DNA of 64,000 nt, taken from the NCBI GenBank assembly GCA_014653715.1, contig JACWEB010000001.1, forward strand, positions 4,525 through 68,524. Direction: 5' to 3'. The position numbers were made by a program, and so were the translations under genes. Shown here in pieces: positions 92-11,131 of this stretch (positions are counted from its first letter, which is position 1; each line of letters opens with the position of its first letter). The notes under the pieces were generated by a model. It searched no databases, was not told the DNA's origin, and was given only the letters and a program-made list of their open reading frames with translations. Source of the stretch: Pelagibacterales bacterium SAG-MED31 (GTDB taxonomy: Bacteria > Pseudomonadota > Alphaproteobacteria > HIMB59 > GCA-002718135).

Positions 92-1666
92 ATGAGTCTT
101 ATTTCAATTAAAAATTTGAAGATTAGCTTTAAACAAAATCAAAATGTTGTTAACAATGTAAATATAGAAATACCAAAAGGTAAAACTGTTGCTATCGTTG
201 GGGAGTCTGGTTCTGGAAAAACATTATCTGCTCTAAGTATTTTAAAATTATTACCTGGAAATGCTAATATAAATAGTGGAAGTATAATATTTAAAGAAAA
301 AGATTTACTTCAACTTCCATTAAATGAAATTGAAAAAATTAGAGGAAATAAAATTTCTACAATTTTTCAAGAACCTATGTCTAGTCTTAACCCTTTGCAT
401 ACAATTGATAAACAAATTAAAGAGATGATTACAATTCACAATAAAAAAAATTTGGTAGAACTTAATGCTTCTGTTTTAAACTTACTAAAAGAAGTAAATT
501 TAGAAGATTTAATGAATAGACCAAATATTTATTCTTATGAACTTTCAGGCGGACAACGTCAAAGAGTAATGATCGCAATGAGTATAGCTAACAACCCAGA
601 TTTATTAATTGCTGATGAGCCCACAACTGCATTAGATGTAACTGTACAACAACAAATATTATCACTCCTAAATAAAATTCAAAAACAAAGAAAAATGTCA
701 ATTTTATTTATTAGTCATGACCTTGGAGTAGTTAATAAAATTGCAGATTATATTTATGTTATGAAAAATGGTGAAATTATTGAGCATGGAGAAAAACTTG
801 AAATTTTTAATAACCCAAAAAATCCATACACAAAGCAGTTAGTTGGGTTTCAGAATAAAATTAGAAAAATTCAAGAAAATAAAGAAATGGAAATTCTTAA
901 AATTAAAGATTTAAAGGTATGGTATCCTATTAAAAAAGGTATTTTTAAAAAAACGGTTGATTATGTTAAGGCCATAGATACAATTAATTTTTCCTTAAAG
1001 AAAAAAGAAACTCTAGGCATTGTGGGAGAATCTGGGTCAGGAAAAACTTCACTTGTTTTAGCTATTTTAAAATTAATAAGATCATCTGGAACAATAGAAT
1101 TTGATAAATTGGATTTAAATTTATTAAAAAAAAATAAACTTAAGAATATAAGAAAAAATATTCAAATTGTTTTTCAAGATCCTTTCTCCTCATTAAGTCC
1201 TAGAATGAATGTTCAGGAAATATTGAATGAAGGAATAGATGTTCACTTTCCAGAATATTCTCTTGTAGAAAAAAAACAAATATTAAAAGATATTTTAAAA
1301 GAAACAGGAATGGATTATGAACGAGATCATAATAAATACCCTCATGAGTTCTCAGGCGGTCAAAGACAAAGAATTGCAATTGCAAGAGCACTAATCTTAA
1401 AACCCAAAATACTGATTTTGGATGAACCCACCTCTGCATTAGATATCACAATACAAAATCAAATATTAGACTTACTTCAAAACTTACAAGAAAAATATTC
1501 TCTTAGCTATATTTTTATAAGTCATGATATGAATGTTATTAGATCTGTTTCAGATAAAATATTAGTTCTAAAAACAGGAAAATTAATTGAATATAACAAT
1601 GCCGAAATTGTATTTAATAACCCAAAAGATGAATATACTAAAAATTTAATTAGCTCAGTTGTTTAA
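92..1666 (+). CDS. yejF: Fused double-ATPase subunit of a peptide/microcin-type ABC importer (YejF-like)
   Basis: 524 aa with two complete ABC cassettes. Walker A GESGSGKT appears twice and signature LSGGQRQR twice. Oligopeptide-type C-terminal motifs (NPKNPYTKQL, NPKDEYTKNL) follow each cassette. Confidence 0.85.
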   Translation: MSLISIKNLKISFKQNQNVVNNVNIEIPKGKTVAIVGESGSGKTLSALSILKLLPGNANINSGSIIFKEKDLLQLPLNEIEKIRGNKISTIFQEPMSSLNPLHTIDKQIKEMITIHNKKNLVELNASVLNLLKEVNLEDLMNRPNIYSYELSGGQRQRVMIAMSIANNPDLLIADEPTTALDVTVQQQILSLLNKIQKQRKMSILFISHDLGVVNKIADYIYVMKNGEIIEHGEKLEIFNNPKNPYTKQLVGFQNKIRKIQENKEMEILKIKDLKVWYPIKKGIFKKTVDYVKAIDTINFSLKKKETLGIVGESGSGKTSLVLAILKLIRSSGTIEFDKLDLNLLKKNKLKNIRKNIQIVFQDPFSSLSPRMNVQEILNEGIDVHFPEYSLVEKKQILKDILKETGMDYERDHNKYPHEFSGGQRQRIAIARALILKPKILILDEPTSALDITIQNQILDLLQNLQEKYSLSYIFISHDMNVIRSVSDKILVLKTGKLIEYNNAEIVFNNPKDEYTKNLISSVV

Positions 1667-1670
1667 TTTA

Positions 1671-1728
1671 TGGCAGAGAGGGAGGGATTCGAACCCTCGA
1701 TAGTGTTTCCACTATACACGCTTTCCAA
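1671..1728 (-). repeat. 58-nt direct copy of the 3' part of tRNA-Ser(GGA), from the anticodon loop to CCA; att-like relic
   Basis: TGGCAGAGAGGGAGGGATTCGAACCCTCGATAGTGTTTCCACTATACACGCTTTCCAA matches 3384-3441 of the intact gene at 56/58 positions. Identity stops at the 5' edge of the anticodon loop. No matching 5' half follows. Confidence 0.85.
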
Positions 1729-1839
1729 AGATGTCTGCATGAACTTTGCTCTGTTCTCTTTTTTTCACATAACCAAGTATAACTTTCTAATTTCTTGATT
1801 TATTTTAACATGAATGAGATTAAATGAGAGATAAAAAAA

Positions 1840-1871
1840 GAGTTGAAGAGAATCGAAAGTGAGTTGAAAAA
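1840..1871 (+). repeat. Three tandem 10-11-nt units (GAGTTGAAGA / GAATCGAAAGT / GAGTTGAAAAA) in the left arm of the distal island
   Basis: Read directly from the sequence. The same motif family recurs at 2813-2834: GAATCGAAAGT versus GAGTCGAAAGT is 10/11, and AAGTGAGTTG versus AAGTGAGTCG is 9/10. Confidence 0.6.
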
Positions 1872-1984
1872 AATGAATATGTTTGATCTTTAAAATTTTA
1901 TTAAAATAAAGTTATAACTTATATTTAATATTGTGATTTATAAAAAAAGAGTATAATTTTATTTAAAAATAACATGGAGGCTAT

Positions 1985-2272
1985 ATGGCTGAAGGATATA
2001 AAGAAGTTGTAGCTAAGAGATCAATTTTTGGTCACATTTCTCGAATTCTATTTTGGGGCTTCAATATATTAATGATTATATGGATATTTGCTGGCTTTAA
2101 TTCTGCGACAGAGGGTATGGAAAACATGACCGATGCTGAAGCAGCTGGTACCGCAATAGGGACAGGAATTGGAGTTACCTTACTTGTGATTATATGGGTT
2201 ATTGGAGATATTATTCTGGGTCTTTTTTATCTTTTTACAAGACCAACAAGACAAATGGTGAAGGACGATTAA
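1985..2272 (+). CDS. Small two-TM membrane protein, unknown function (island cargo)
   Basis: 95 aa with a strong SD (GGAGG) 5 nt upstream of the ATG. It has two hydrophobic helices (ILFWGFNILMIIWIFAGF and IGVTLLVIIWVIGDIILGLFYLF) and a charged C-terminal tail, RPTRQMVKDD. Confidence 0.6.
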   Translation: MAEGYKEVVAKRSIFGHISRILFWGFNILMIIWIFAGFNSATEGMENMTDAEAAGTAIGTGIGVTLLVIIWVIGDIILGLFYLFTRPTRQMVKDD

Positions 2273-2274
2273 AT

Positions 2275-2802
2275 ATGACCAATTTAGGCAGGAAGAAAAT
2301 CTTATTTATTTTTTTCCTGTCTATCTTTTCTTTTGTATGTAATGCAAATGAAAACCAAATAAATTTTATAAAAATAATTAATGATTTTCGTGCAGGATTT
2401 TCTTCCAATTATAATGATTTAAAAGTTAATAAAATACTTCTTGACAGAAATGAATTGCTTTGTGGTACCACCCCACCAATAATTAATAACTGGAAGGGTA
2501 AAATTAAGGAGATAACAACAAACATGCAGGGAAAAGGTATTTTATCTGTAATAATTGACAAAGGTATATTTATACAAACATGGAATAATGCATTTTCAGA
2601 TTTGTTTGATAATACTCTTATTGAAACAGACTCTAAAGTATATACTCAACTCTTAGAATTAAATAAGGGAGACTCAATTTTATTTAGTGGAGATTTTATA
2701 GAAAATTCAAGTGAATGTTTTGGAACTCAAAATTTAACTAATAAATCTAAAATTTCTAAACCAGAATTTACATTTATATTTACAAATATTTTAAAAAATT
2801 AA
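2275..2802 (+). CDS. Secreted/periplasmic protein of unknown function (island cargo)
   Basis: The in-frame ATG at 2275 gives MTNLGRKKILFIFFLSIFSFVCNANE..., a classical signal peptide. It starts 2 nt after the stop of the preceding ORF. The track's longer 2194 start overlaps that ORF and lacks a signal peptide. Confidence 0.6.
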   Translation: MTNLGRKKILFIFFLSIFSFVCNANENQINFIKIINDFRAGFSSNYNDLKVNKILLDRNELLCGTTPPIINNWKGKIKEITTNMQGKGILSVIIDKGIFIQTWNNAFSDLFDNTLIETDSKVYTQLLELNKGDSILFSGDFIENSSECFGTQNLTNKSKISKPEFTFIFTNILKN

Positions 2803-2812
2803 TTCAATAAGT

Positions 2813-2834
2813 GAGTCGTATTAGAGTCGAAAGT
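2813..2834 (+). repeat. Two tandem 11-nt units (GAGTCGTATTA / GAGTCGAAAGT) in the right arm of the distal island
   Basis: Read directly. Same orientation and motif family as 1840-1871. Ends 22 nt before the 26-nt tRNA fragment. Confidence 0.6.
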
Positions 2835-2856
2835 TATATAATTTTATTTGATAAAT

Positions 2857-2882
2857 TGGCGGAGAGAGAGGGATTCAAACCC
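2857..2882 (-). repeat. 26-nt direct copy of the extreme 3' end of tRNA-Ser(GGA) (acceptor 3' strand plus T-loop); att-like relic
   Basis: TGGCGGAGAGAGAGGGATTCAAACCC versus TGGCGGAGAGAGAGGGATTCGAACCC at 3384-3409 (25/26). Similarity ends inside the T-arm. Confidence 0.75.
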
Positions 2883-3383
2883 CAAGGGAAAGGGAGGTTC
2901 TTAGTTTATTTTTTAATAATTTTTAAAGTGGGTTAAATGACCCACTTTAAAAATATTCTATTAAAGAACTTTTAATAAGCCTTCATCATCAATCATTGCT
3001 TCAACTTGTGGGAAAGTACACATTGGCGCCCAACTCATCATGAAGCCGTGAAGTTTTTCATGACTTTCTGCATCTACGATTACATAACCATAGCCACTTG
3101 CTGCATTATGAACTCTAGCAATTTTAGTTACTCCTTCAGGAAATTCACCATCTCTTTCCTCCTGAGTCATATTTTTATAATACTCTTGTGCAGCTAATTT
3201 CTTATCATCATATAAAACGTATTTTAAGTGATATAACATTCTTAATCCTTTCAATTTAATTATGATAGATTATCCTAACACTAACCAATAGGGATGTTTA
3301 GATAAAATATCATCTCAAGTGTGACCTATAAGTGACCAAAACCATATTTATTGAAAAATCGTTAAAGAAAAACAACTAATTTA
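2883..3383. mobile_element. tRNA-proximal mini-island (about 0.5 kb) between the 26-nt fragment and the intact tRNA-Ser
   Basis: Bounded by direct tRNA 3'-end repeats. It holds a single small ORF on the minus strand, a perfect hairpin (2923-2950) and a GTGACC-N5-GTGACC repeat (3321-3337). Confidence 0.5.
2961..3239 (-). CDS. Small cytoplasmic protein, possibly DUF3303-like; function unknown
   Basis: The ATG at 3239 (MLYHLKYVLYDD...) is preceded by AAAGGA. The track's start at 3254 is a TTG inside that SD. Size (about 92 aa) and the PEG...G.G...W...P pattern recall the DUF3303 family from memory only. Confidence 0.45.
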   Translation of the reverse strand: MLYHLKYVLYDDKKLAAQEYYKNMTQEERDGEFPEGVTKIARVHNAASGYGYVIVDAESHEKLHGFMMSWAPMCTFPQVEAMIDDEGLLKVL

Positions 3384-3473
3384 TGGCGGAGAGAGAGGGA
3401 TTCGAACCCTCGATAGTGTTTCCACTATACACGCTTTCCAAGCGTGCTGATTAAACCACTCTCACATCTCTCC
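3384..3473 (-). tRNA. tRNA-Ser (anticodon GGA), class II with long variable arm, CCA encoded
   Basis: The reverse complement folds as a cloverleaf: acceptor GGAGAGA/TCTCTCC, anticodon stem CACGC/GCGTG with loop TTGGAAA, variable arm ATAGTG-GAAA-CACTAT, T arm GAGGG-TTCGAAT-CCCTC, then G-CCA. Confidence 0.95.
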
Positions 3474-3486
3474 ATAAAAAAATTTA

Positions 3487-5289
3487 TTAGTTTTCATTCA
3501 TTTTTAATGCATTCAAAAAGGCATTTTGTGGAATATCAACTTTTCCAAATTGTCTCATTCGCTTTTTTCCTTTTTTTTGCTTATCAAGAAGTTTATTTTT
3601 ACGAGTAACATCACCGCCGTACAGTTTTTGTGTTACATCTTTTCTAAATGAAGCAACTGTTTCTCTAGCTATAATTTTTCCTCCAATAGCAGCTTGAATA
3701 GCAACCTTGAATTGCTGTCTTGGTATTAAGTTTTTCAGACGTTCACATAAAGCTCTTCCCCTTGATTGGGATCTATCTTTATGAACAATTAATGATAAAG
3801 CATCAACAGGATCTCCATTAATCATTATACTAACTTTAACTAAATTATTTACTTCATAACCTACTAATTCATAATCAAAACTTGCATAACCTTTAGTTAT
3901 TGATTTTAATCGATCATAAAAATCAAATACTACTTCATTCAAAGGAAGTTTATATTCAACCATTGCTCTTGTGCCTGCATAATTAAGATTTATTTGAATT
4001 CCTCTTTTTGATGTACATAATTCTAATACAACTCCTAAATATTTATCGGGAACAATAATTGTAGCTTTTATCCAGGGTTCCTCAATTGTATCAATTTTTA
4101 CTGGGTCCGGCATATCAGTGGGATTATGCAAATCGACAACCGATCCATCATTCATATTAATTTTATAAACAACAGAAGGCGCTGTAGTAACAAGCTCAAG
4201 ATTAAACTCTAAATCAAATCTATCTCTTATAATCTCCAAATGAAGTAGTCCTAAAAAACCACATCTAAAACCATAACCAAGGGCCGGGCTAACTTCTGGC
4301 TCATAAGAAAAGCTTGAGTCATTTAAAGCAAGTTTAACCATACTGTCTCTTAAGTGCTCATAGTCATCTGAATCTACTGGAAACATTCCACAAAAAACGA
4401 CTGGTTGAGAAGGTTTAAAACCAGGCAGAGGTTCTGTTGTAGGATTTTTTTCTTCTGTAATTGTATCACCTACCTTGCAATCTGATACACTTTTAATTCC
4501 TGAATTAATAAAACCTATTTCTCCAGGACCTAAAGTATCTACCTCAGTCGGTTTTGGTGAAAAAATACCTACTCTATCAATTGTGTGTGTAGCGCCTGCA
4601 GCCATAAACCTAATTTTTTGATTTTTTTTCAACTGGCCATTAATTACTCTTACCAAAACAATCACTCCAAGATAACTGTCATACCAGCTATCAACGAGCA
4701 TACATTTTAGTGGCTCATCTGATGTTCCTTTGGGAGAAGGCAGATCCGTAACAATTTTTTCTAATAATTCTTCAACGCCTTGGCCTGTTTTAGCTGAAAC
4801 TAATGATGCATCAGATGCATCAATCCCAAGAACATCTTCAATTTGTTCCTTAATTTTTTCAGGTTCTGATGAAGGAAGGTCGGCCTTATTTAATACTGGT
4901 AAAATTTCATGATCATTATTAATTGCTTGATAGGCATTAGCAAGTGTTTGCGCTTCAACCCCCTGAGTTGAGTCAACAATTAAAAGAGAACTTTCACAAG
5001 CAGCTAGTGATCTTGATACTTCATAAGCAAAGTCTACATGTCCAGGAGTATCCATAAGATTTAAAATATATTTCTTTCCATCTTTAGAGGTATAATTAAG
5101 ACAAACTGTTTGAGCTTTAATTGTTATTCCACGCTCTCTCTCTAATTCCATTGAGTCCAGAACTTGTTCTTTCATTTCTCTACCAGATAAGCCTCCACAA
5201 AATTGAATAAGTCTGTCTGCCAACGTTGATTTTCCATGATCAATATGCGCAACTATAGAAAAATTTCTAATGCTTGAGAGATCTTTCAT
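3487..5289 (-). CDS. lepA: Elongation factor 4 (LepA)
   Basis: 600 aa. GTPase motifs [17 protein letters not shown] and NKAD, plus the LepA-specific C-terminal domain. Confidence 0.97.
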
Positions 5290-10129: not shown

Positions 10130-11131
10130 ATGAAAATTTGTATTGAGCGCACTGATCGAATGGGGGATATGATCTTAACGCTACCTGTTATTCAAGGGAT
10201 TAAAGAGAAAAATCCTCAGGCTATTGTTCATGTAATTGCATCGCAAAAAAATTCAAAAATATGTAACCAATTTAACTTGATTGAAAAAATATTTGAAAAA
10301 TCAAAATTGTCATCTTCATTTAACAATTTAACAAAGTCCATTAGTGCAGAAAAATATGATTATTATTTTACTTTTAGCCCTGGCTGGTTTGGATTATGTT
10401 TGGGATTTTTTTCTAAAAGTAAGTTTAAATCTTCTCTAATTCTTAAGTCAAGGTACAGCTCAAATGTACTTAGTAAATTAGGTCAAATATTTTTTAGTAA
10501 AGTATTTTATTCACTGTCATTTGTAATTAATAGATTTGAATTATTAAAAGCAAATAAAGATATCCACCAAACAAATATGATGATGGATGTGGTATCAAAA
10601 AGTGGCATTGCAATAAGCAGAAAAACTCAAACTAAATTTATCTTTAACAACGAATTTACATTAAACAAAAGTAAGCCTGTATGTATTGTTCATCTGTCTT
10701 CAAAATGGGTTAACAGCTACTATTCTGAAGAAAATTTTGATGATCTAATAAAATTATTAAATGAAAAAGATATATTAATCTACTTAACTACAGATGAAAC
10801 AACAAAAAATAAATTTAATAAAATTTTTGAGACTTTTGATGCTGTAGAAGATCCTAGCAAGATGCAAAAGAGTTCAAAAAGTATTTTAATATGTAATAAT
10901 TTTAAATTTGCAAATTGGACAAGTTTAATAAATCAAGCAGATTATGTAATTACACCAGAGAGTGGATGCACTCATATTGCTTCCTTAACAAAGTGTAAAC
11001 TTGCTGTAATTTATGATGCTAATAATTCTCCAAATAGCATCAGGCAAGAATATGCCCCTTGGAATAAAGAATACTTAGCTCTAGAGACAAATGATAAAGA
11101 TTTAAATCAAAAACTATTCAACTTTATCTAA
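10130..11131 (+). CDS. Glycosyltransferase family 9 (LPS heptosyltransferase-like)
   Basis: 333 aa. The N-terminus, RTDRMGDMILTLPVIQGIKEKNP, is typical of the GT9 RfaC/RfaF family. Confidence 0.75.
   Translation: MKICIERTDRMGDMILTLPVIQGIKEKNPQAIVHVIASQKNSKICNQFNLIEKIFEKSKLSSSFNNLTKSISAEKYDYYFTFSPGWFGLCLGFFSKSKFKSSLILKSRYSSNVLSKLGQIFFSKVFYSLSFVINRFELLKANKDIHQTNMMMDVVSKSGIAISRKTQTKFIFNNEFTLNKSKPVCIVHLSSKWVNSYYSEENFDDLIKLLNEKDILIYLTTDETTKNKFNKIFETFDAVEDPSKMQKSSKSILICNNFKFANWTSLINQADYVITPESGCTHIASLTKCKLAVIYDANNSPNSIRQEYAPWNKEYLALETNDKDLNQKLFNFI

Follow-up and report, generated by a model that had tools for sequence, protein, structure and literature searches.

How does the 3′ end of a single tRNA gene come to occur three times at one locus, and where do the genes lying between the copies originate from? 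This question is raised by a stretch of 64,000 nucleotides (nt) of Pelagibacterales bacterium SAG-MED31 (contig JACWEB010000001.1, positions 4,525 to 68,524), hereafter called the window, in which two small gene cassettes are inserted between tRNA-Ser(GGA) and the ABC transporter gene yejF, each bounded by a partial copy of this tRNA. An earlier reading of the letters alone (the original prediction) had proposed two integration events by different integrases and had seen in them a record of past lysogeny. The analysis presented below leads us to conclude that both cassettes are probably relics of small integrative elements which entered an insertion hotspot of SAR11 genomes and from which the integrase gene (int) has been deleted.

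Three copies of the tRNA-Ser(GGA) 3′ end

According to ARAGORN, tRNA-Ser(GGA), encoded on the minus strand at 3384-3473, is the sole tRNA of the 64-kb window; it reaches an Rfam score of 54.9 bits as a tRNA, and an Rfam scan of the window returned nothing but tRNA above threshold. A repeat search of the window revealed a 58-nt copy of its 3′ end at 1671-1728 (56/58 identity) and a 26-nt copy at 2857-2882 (25/26 identity), both oriented as the intact gene. These alignments, as well as the gene content of islands and flanks, reproduce what the original prediction had described. The longer copy can be extended by the 7 nt TAATTTA (1664-1670, which include the yejF stop codon) to a 65-nt repeat with 63/65 identical positions (97%). 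The locus is accordingly delimited by the following features, att denoting an attachment site:

1664-1728, minus strand: probable displaced original tRNA 3′ end and distal att relic of the older cassette (58-nt copy plus 7-nt shared trailer)
2857-2882, minus strand: probable distal att relic of the DUF3303 cassette (26-nt copy, 25/26)
3384-3473, minus strand: intact tRNA-Ser(GGA), the putative attachment site (ARAGORN, Rfam)

In tRNA numbering the 58-nt copy comprises positions 33-90 and starts at the 5′ edge of the anticodon loop, while the 26-nt copy comprises positions 65-90 and starts within the 5′ strand of the T stem. Searching the window for the 26-mer with up to three mismatches retrieved these three places only (0.00 matches expected from 100 dinucleotide shuffles). 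The cassettes fill 1729-3383, immediately 3′ of the tRNA, and are bounded by direct repeats of its 3′ end of which none is expected by chance; att sites on both sides together with the lack of an integrase are also what is expected of a cis-mobilisable element.

At both copies the boundary is abrupt, identity falling from 96-97% to background, and local alignment against shuffled or random genomic controls detected no residual tRNA 5′ half beside either of them (p about 0.55 and 0.24). The fragments can therefore not be regarded as decayed duplicate genes, an alternative which the original prediction had itself put forward. A nearly full second copy of the tRNA does occur in a few metagenome contigs (positions 3-85 in L260, positions 5-90 in L238; L numbers designate contigs), as tandem duplication would have it. 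Yet unrelated genes lie between the copies, and some relatives have a precise empty site, so that decay of tandem tRNA duplicates is hardly credible as an explanation.

Empty sites and alternative cargo

For a comparison of the junction across relatives, marine metagenomes were scanned with a pattern specific to tRNA-Ser(GGA), which yielded at least 120 contigs; these contigs, minus those with a G+C content of 36% or more and plus ten contigs carrying DUF3303, make up the population sample. It holds at least 82 full tRNAs and at least 46 partial 3′ copies. The best identities of proteins encoded on marine metagenome contigs to those of the window amount to 98% for LepA, encoded on the other side of the tRNA, and to 94% for YejF. 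We regard the window, whose G+C content is 28.7%, as belonging to a SAR11-type genome.

Downstream sequence of at least 1.2 kb is available for 42 full tRNAs; among the matches listed, only two of them abut yejF (L218 and L271), and it is these two contigs whose YejF is closest to that of the window within the same list (93-94% identity). Here the tRNA ends 5 nt from yejF, and the junction, TAAATTA...CAACTGAGC, is identical to that found at the 58-nt copy. The position of the 58-nt copy relative to yejF and the sequence downstream of it likewise match the full-tRNA/yejF junction of L218, L271 and L238. Hence, as had been predicted, the 58-nt copy corresponds to the original tRNA end, and the approximately 1.65 kb separating it from the tRNA is, to judge from this comparison, inserted DNA relative to close relatives. 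L218 and L271 thus represent a precise empty site at which the insertion is polymorphic in presence and absence.

Most other contigs of the sample carry different cargo at the tRNA, often as arrays of two to three partial copies. Such multiple copies are present in at least 17 contigs (e.g. L235, L248, L280, L289 and L300), spaced by 0.5-11 kb of unrelated genes (about 11 kb in L289 and L300). The starts of the partial copies are discrete: among the matches listed, 19 lie at positions 17-23, 17 at positions 27-34, eight at positions 57-65 and one each at positions 5 and 13, the class 57-65 being under-sampled since the search pattern needed about 56 nt. Glycosyltransferases, hydrolases and small proteins, either membrane-bound or secreted, make up the cargo; a regular expression for integrase motifs found no match in the open reading frames (ORFs) beside the tRNA, which encode surface or carbohydrate-type enzymes. 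In SAR11-type genomes tRNA-Ser(GGA) thus presents itself as an insertion hotspot. The view of the original prediction that integration at the tRNA has left the repeats as its footprints is supported.

Between the tRNA and yejF we also observed large paralogous proteins which are 40-80% identical across lineages. They fall into a family of about 660 amino acids (aa) in L211, L223, L284, L297, L309 and L333, the member in L333 containing TPR and methyltransferase domains, and a family of about 605 aa in L227, L282 and L310. These families agree with the paralog-rich SAR11 islands described in the literature.

The 5′ side of the tRNA is occupied in some relatives. The interval between lepA and the tRNA in L218 (583-5889; also in L284, L287, L233, L240 and L249) contains five genes missing from the window, which we read as glycosylation genes presumably encoding a Wzy-like membrane protein, an oxidoreductase, an epimerase, a C-methyltransferase and a GT2 glycosyltransferase. 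LepA of these relatives is 98% identical to LepA of the window. Both sides of the tRNA are therefore variable. In L247, a 12-kb island is opened by a copy of tRNA positions 1-45 and an integrase remnant and ends in a full tRNA. A genome scan anchored on LepA gave, among the matches listed, almost only distant Alphaproteobacteria; L001, the sole close locus among them (87% LepA identity), has no tRNA after lepA. In the window the two flanks are:

92-1666, plus strand: yejF-like double ABC ATPase, conserved distal flank (Pfam ABC_tran twice and oligo_HPY)
3487-5289, minus strand: lepA, proximal flank, ending 13 nt from the tRNA 5′ end

Since lepA approaches the tRNA this closely, the 5′ side is unoccupied in the window.

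Leader and tandem repeat

Two further elements of the window recur at this tRNA in other contigs:

3268-3383, minus strand: conserved 116-nt leader directly after the tRNA 3′ end, with TAAATTA, a tandem repeat and a TGnTAGGAT box
2813-2831, minus strand: tandem 11-nt repeat relic TTCGACTC-TAA-TACGACTC, starting 26 nt after the 26-nt tRNA copy (an offset of 25 if counted from zero)

A leader resembling 3268-3383 follows 24 of 113 tRNA copies, full or partial, among the matches listed, and precedes different cargos, between which it is about 80% identical. It starts with TAAATTA, the trailer present at empty sites, and ends with the TGnTAGGAT box (about 3272-3280 in the window), which lies a few to 30 nt ahead of the cargo start codon and is a candidate extended -10 promoter; a scan for consensus promoters called none at this box. 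In many cassettes (e.g. L245, L248, L299 and L088 from 584 onwards) the ATG of the cargo gene is located about 8-10 nt past the box, often in the context ATGAAAAAA as in signal-peptide proteins. Such a spacing would imply leaderless or nearly leaderless mRNAs.

Within the leader of the window the sequence GGTCAC-TTATA-GGTCAC is found at 3321-3339. A tandem repeat with this period of 11 is present in 27 of 108 tRNA copies among the matches listed, compared with 0.5 expected, and in most of the copies carrying it starts 42-47 nt past the tRNA 3′ end; the control periods 9, 10, 12 and 13 occur in 0-1 copies. The repeat core varies between loci (GGTCAC, GGTTGC, GGTCTC, CGACAAC, CGACTC and others) while both units are near-identical within a locus, a comparison which is biased by the choice of loci possessing the repeat and which we use in a qualitative sense only. 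The same motif is situated just upstream of the int start codon in L346 (116-138), L331 (9966-9988), L291 (4405-4427), L344 (3357-3380) and L345 (about 101-125), and it occurs beside tRNA-Leu repeats in L340 (9189-9228 and 14369-14408). Both repeats of the window, the one following the intact tRNA (3321-3339) and the one following the 26-nt copy (2813-2831), share the architecture of the repeat preceding int.

Phage integrases have arm-type sites, and we infer that the tandem repeats are putative sites of this type. Read in this way and common to both cassettes, they suggest that both would descend from one family of elements. The original prediction had assigned the two repeat lengths to two different integrase types. 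We find no support for this assignment: the two cassettes carry the same tandem 11-bp repeat, which precedes one integrase family, and the end of an identity block marks the reach of the element's tRNA homology rather than the crossover point.

An integrase family at the same tRNA

A jackhmmer search seeded with four Pfam-verified integrases identified, in L291, an N-terminal integrase ORF adjoining a copy of tRNA positions 1-45. ORFs of this family, which combine Arm-DNA-binding and Int_N domains, lie beside tRNA-Ser(GGA) fragments in L291, L331, L332 and L346, and by domain the family belongs to Phage_integrase/Int_N. A recurring layout is seen in L331 (downstream of lepA), L332 and L346, where a tRNA-Ser fragment (positions 1-45 or 1-52) is followed by about 110 nt, the tandem repeat, a ribosome-binding site and int. 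The integrase of L346 (P0212) is full length, with 351 aa, a Phage_integrase match of E 5.5e-22, an HTLRH motif and a C-terminal tyrosine. Relatives are a 328-aa integrase directly after another tRNA-Ser 3′ end (L345) and a partial one after a tRNA-Gln-like 5′ fragment (L344). Decayed integrase remnants are found in L291 after the full tRNA and leader, in L268 after positions 29-90 and in L247 after positions 1-45. As far as can be told from these genes, integrase-bearing elements do use tRNA-Ser(GGA), and their integrases decay.

The N-terminus has 68 close homologs (P0001-P0068), mostly on short contigs and all of 161 aa or less; several show Int_N or SAM-like domains and weak arm-DNA-binding domain matches. 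They are probably cut by contig ends, while some end at stop codons, and the shortness could arise from assembly breaks or from widespread pseudogenes. We would like to note that contigs tend to stop within or just after int, L331 ending in an inverted-repeat assembly artefact (10440-10562). Integrase-like matches in L294, L304 and L320 were excluded as these are high-G+C contigs of another organism.

One may ask whether any integrase was needed at all. Circles or imported fragments bearing a partial tRNA and the leader could enter by RecA-dependent homologous recombination, the arrays then being shuffled by recombination between the flanking core genes. The shared block of up to 72 nt of tRNA plus the 116-nt leader would offer homology for this, cargo families are highly paralogous across lineages, and SAR11 islands have been reported to be devoid of canonical mobile elements (PMC11796062). 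The 26-nt block of the DUF3303 cassette, however, is very short for homologous recombination, and leaders of different cargos share no more than about 80% identity. The copies start at discrete 5′ boundaries, and tRNA fragments have integrase genes or their remnants directly beside them, both of which point to a site-specific origin. We hence consider an entry independent of integrase improbable.

Portable cargo

The cargo genes of the two cassettes are:

1985-2272, plus strand: ORF A, small membrane protein of 95 aa, cargo of the putatively older cassette (phrog_6586, a family of unknown function, E 3.5e-16)
2275-2802, plus strand: ORF B, 175 aa, cargo of the same cassette, no family match
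2961-3239, minus strand: DUF3303 protein of 92 aa, sole cargo of the tRNA-proximal cassette (PF11746, E 1.9e-10)

An identical DUF3303 protein, annotated as Pelagibacterales SAG-MED31, is contained in 77 blocks of public assemblies with differing neighbours. Exact look-ups of ORF A, ORF B, YejF and LepA gave no match, so that the genome of the window is absent from the collection queried. The unit made up of leader, DUF3303 gene and 26-nt copy recurs with 94-99% nucleotide identity and is placed either after a full tRNA or after copies of 70-72 nt. In L082, L084, L086, L087 and L088 the 26-nt copy follows the same DUF3303 gene, and the downstream neighbours are of three kinds, none of which is that of the window. 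The ORF A/B pair is present in L333-L338 at about 80% nucleotide identity, followed in L334 by the same 26-nt copy. ORF B is 76% identical in L334 and 59% in L340. In L340 and L339 the pair, at 59-78% protein identity, is part of a block of nine genes spanning about 5 kb. This block forms in L340 (9096-14506) a 5.3-kb island beside tRNA-Leu(CAA), with 46-nt repeats of the 5′ portion of that tRNA on either side, and lies in L339 (7372-12294) among resolvase, HNH, RepB-like and DruA genes. Recurring in such varied contexts, both cassettes are therefore to be regarded as portable cargo units.

One alternative is that the cassettes are still mobile in trans, i.e. that a partial tRNA, a leader with tandem repeats and cargo constitute a cis-mobilisable unit moved by an integrase encoded elsewhere, which would make the site somewhat like an integron platform. 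The att copies have indeed hardly any mismatches (25/26 and 63/65), the family includes intact integrases, and the repeat units are near-identical per locus even where int is missing, which suggests ongoing constraint, although the figure for within-locus identity is biased by the selection of repeat-bearing loci. The same DUF3303 unit occupies different array positions, but newer insertions pushing an old, near-fixed cassette outward explain this equally well. Against mobility in trans stand the finding of DUF3303 at tRNA-Ser(GGA) only, the lack of an integrase in the window and the lack of any circular junction or tandem cassette duplicate in about 130 contigs. On balance, continued mobility in trans is a possible but unlikely account. 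Rather unlikely, too, is a more far-reaching version comprising an integron-like cassette platform at tRNA-Ser(GGA) and other tRNAs (Leu(CAA), Gln-like). Its cassettes would consist of a partial tRNA, a promoter-bearing leader and two 11-bp sites, the core of which would co-evolve with the arm-binding domain of the integrase, and integrase-less cassettes would be exchanged in trans across the population.

Origin of the two cassettes

Neither cassette contains an integrase or an integrase remnant, as the original prediction had correctly stated, nor does any other part of the 64-kb window. Being devoid of integrase while sharing the repeat that precedes int in related contigs, the cassettes are therefore best read as integrase-deleted relics. 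According to the mechanism we envisage, the lepA/tRNA-Ser(GGA)/yejF junction would serve as attachment site for small elements with a tyrosine integrase. The circular element would carry a copy of the tRNA from a position p as far as its CCA end, with about 7 nt in addition, followed by the two-repeat arm and by int. Recombination with the chromosomal tRNA would restore the full gene, its 5′ part coming from the host and its 3′ part from the element, the element would settle 3′ of the gene, and the original 3′ end would be displaced outward as a partial copy whose length equals the homology block of the element. In the window, an element with ORF A and ORF B (block 33-90 plus 7 nt) would have arrived first, leaving the 58-nt copy against yejF, and the DUF3303 element (block 65-90) later, leaving the 26-nt copy. 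Both would then have lost int, so that cargo and att relics remain which would be immobile on their own. The order of the events and the loss of int by deletion are what we infer from the arrangement.

Several observations weigh against this scenario. In the whole window no integrase or remnant lies beside the tRNA or elsewhere, and none of the contigs combines int, cargo and the two att ends into a complete element at tRNA-Ser(GGA). The only full-length integrase located beside this tRNA, that of L346, is next to a 5′ fragment which stops at position 45, whereas the window has 3′ copies, and none of the 68 close homologs of the integrase N-terminus exceeds 161 aa. Of the related ORF A/B contigs, L333 does not possess the 58-nt copy and L334 lacks the repeat relic. 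In base composition the cassettes do not stand out clearly, the G+C content ranging from 0.22 to 0.36 across 1650-3450 with no clear step, compared with 0.287 (28.7%) for the window. Finally, homologous recombination via tRNA and leader would yield the same end products.

Relation to phages and to known elements

Temperate pelagiphages integrate into tRNA genes (bioRxiv 10.1101/410191), and ORF A matches a PHROG family of unknown function, both of which could be taken to favour heavily eroded prophages as a record of pelagiphage lysogeny at tRNA-Ser(GGA). However, structural, replication and lysis genes are all missing from the cassettes, and the hotspot cargo of glycosyltransferases, hydrolases and small membrane or secreted proteins speaks against prophages as well. 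A tblastn search against phage records gave nothing for ORF A and one weak match for ORF B. Among 50,697 phage records no phage attachment site (attP) for the tRNA of the window was found, only generic tRNA-Ser matches being obtained, and SAR11-specific 43-45-mers of tRNA-Ser(GGA) had 0 matches in the viral contigs of IMG/VR. The integrase shows only 28-33% identity to its best matches in the phage collection, and neither relatives of P0212 nor the integrase junction matched any IMG/VR contig. Thus SAR11-specific tRNA segment, integrase junction and close integrase relative appear in no phage record or IMG/VR contig, and the sites reported for pelagiphages are tRNA-Cys, tRNA-Leu and tRNA-Arg (bioRxiv 10.1101/410191). 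The 26-mer gave 120 listed matches in viral contigs, which were discarded, each being either another tRNA-Ser gene or an attP site from an unrelated host; those of low G+C content are full tRNA-Ser genes with other anticodons and variable arms, the 26-mer being common to many unrelated tRNA-Ser genes. A prophage origin is accordingly very improbable, and past lysogeny is not borne out.

In temperate pelagiphages of the HTVC019P type, whose tyrosine integrases target SAR11 tRNA genes, some attP carry the 5′ part of the tRNA (bioRxiv 10.1101/410191). Likewise, the integrase junctions of L346, L331 and L291 adjoin a tRNA 5′ fragment. The targets differ, being tRNA-Cys, tRNA-Leu and tRNA-Arg in the phages versus tRNA-Ser here, as do the integrases, given the low identity reported above.

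Closest to the locus in clade and in the signature of partial tRNA repeats are the SAR11 flexible islands of PMC11796062. In that study, seven islands are linked to tRNAs, four of them having a partial repeat of that tRNA with more than 90% identity; the repeats were read as gene-cassette insertion, and no canonical mobile elements apart from one integrase were reported. In the passages searched, neither arrays nor a leader, a tandem repeat or an integrase family like those seen here are mentioned. The DUF3303 protein of the window is identical to one from a single-amplified genome (SAG) whose SAG-MED prefix suggests the type of Mediterranean SAG on which that study drew. In Prochlorococcus, tycheposons are tyrosine-recombinase elements that integrate at island tRNAs. 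Between one element and the next there is nothing but a partial tRNA copy, each new arrival shifts its predecessors inward, and broken integrases along with isolated tRNA fragments survive as remnants (bioRxiv 10.1101/2020.12.28.424599). They, too, form arrays at tRNAs of a streamlined marine genome, the host being a different one. Neither the tycheposon integrase clade nor their replication module is evident here: the window holds cargo only, and no helicase or primase of a replication module was found in it. Small elements of Pelagibacter with a tyrosine recombinase, often located beside tRNAs and including the VEIME phage satellites, have been found in vesicles and virus-like particles (PMC11876622, PMC9618062). 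Of the family described here, neither the junction nor a close integrase relative is in IMG/VR. In the light of these papers and of PMC11796062, the notion invoked by the original prediction that SAR11 lacks mobile DNA is out of date.

The cis-mobilisable elements (CIMEs) of Streptococcus thermophilus are att-flanked, integrase-less and accreted in tandem with related elements at one site, and their mobilisation in trans has been demonstrated. The cassettes of the window resemble them in att flanks, lack of integrase and tandem accretion, whereas their mobilisation in trans would be hypothetical.

The kind of feature found here is already described in SAR11 and Prochlorococcus and is not a new principle. 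For the integrase family, the two-sided accretion and the co-varying repeat we found no mention in the literature passages at hand, by which we do not claim that they are unpublished. The locus illustrates, at the level of the sequence, how genes may still be gained and lost in a streamlined genome that has hardly any mobile-element genes: small elements land at a tRNA, their integrase is deleted, and cargo and att scars are left. One tRNA with dozens of alternative 3′ cargos, which in some lineages is also a 5′ accretion zone, would help to explain part of the SAR11 flexible genome. The integrase family and the co-varying tandem repeat persisting in integrase-less cassettes constitute an open lead.

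Further features of the cassettes

Two non-coding features complete the inventory of the inserted DNA:

1729-1984, no strand: non-coding spacer of the older cassette, without homolog in related ORF A/B contigs
2919-2954, no strand: 16-bp A/T-flanked hairpin past the DUF3303 stop codon, ahead of the 26-nt copy

In agreement with the former, BLASTN homology to L333-L338 begins only at window position 1970. The N-terminus of ORF B, a protein for which no Pfam match was obtained, looks like a signal peptide. The homologs of ORF A (P0089-P0180; from Vibrio, Chromohalobacter, Agarivorans and others) mostly comprise 109 aa with an N-terminal zinc ribbon, which is not part of the SAR11-type versions. 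The hairpin at 2919-2954 looks terminator-like on both strands.

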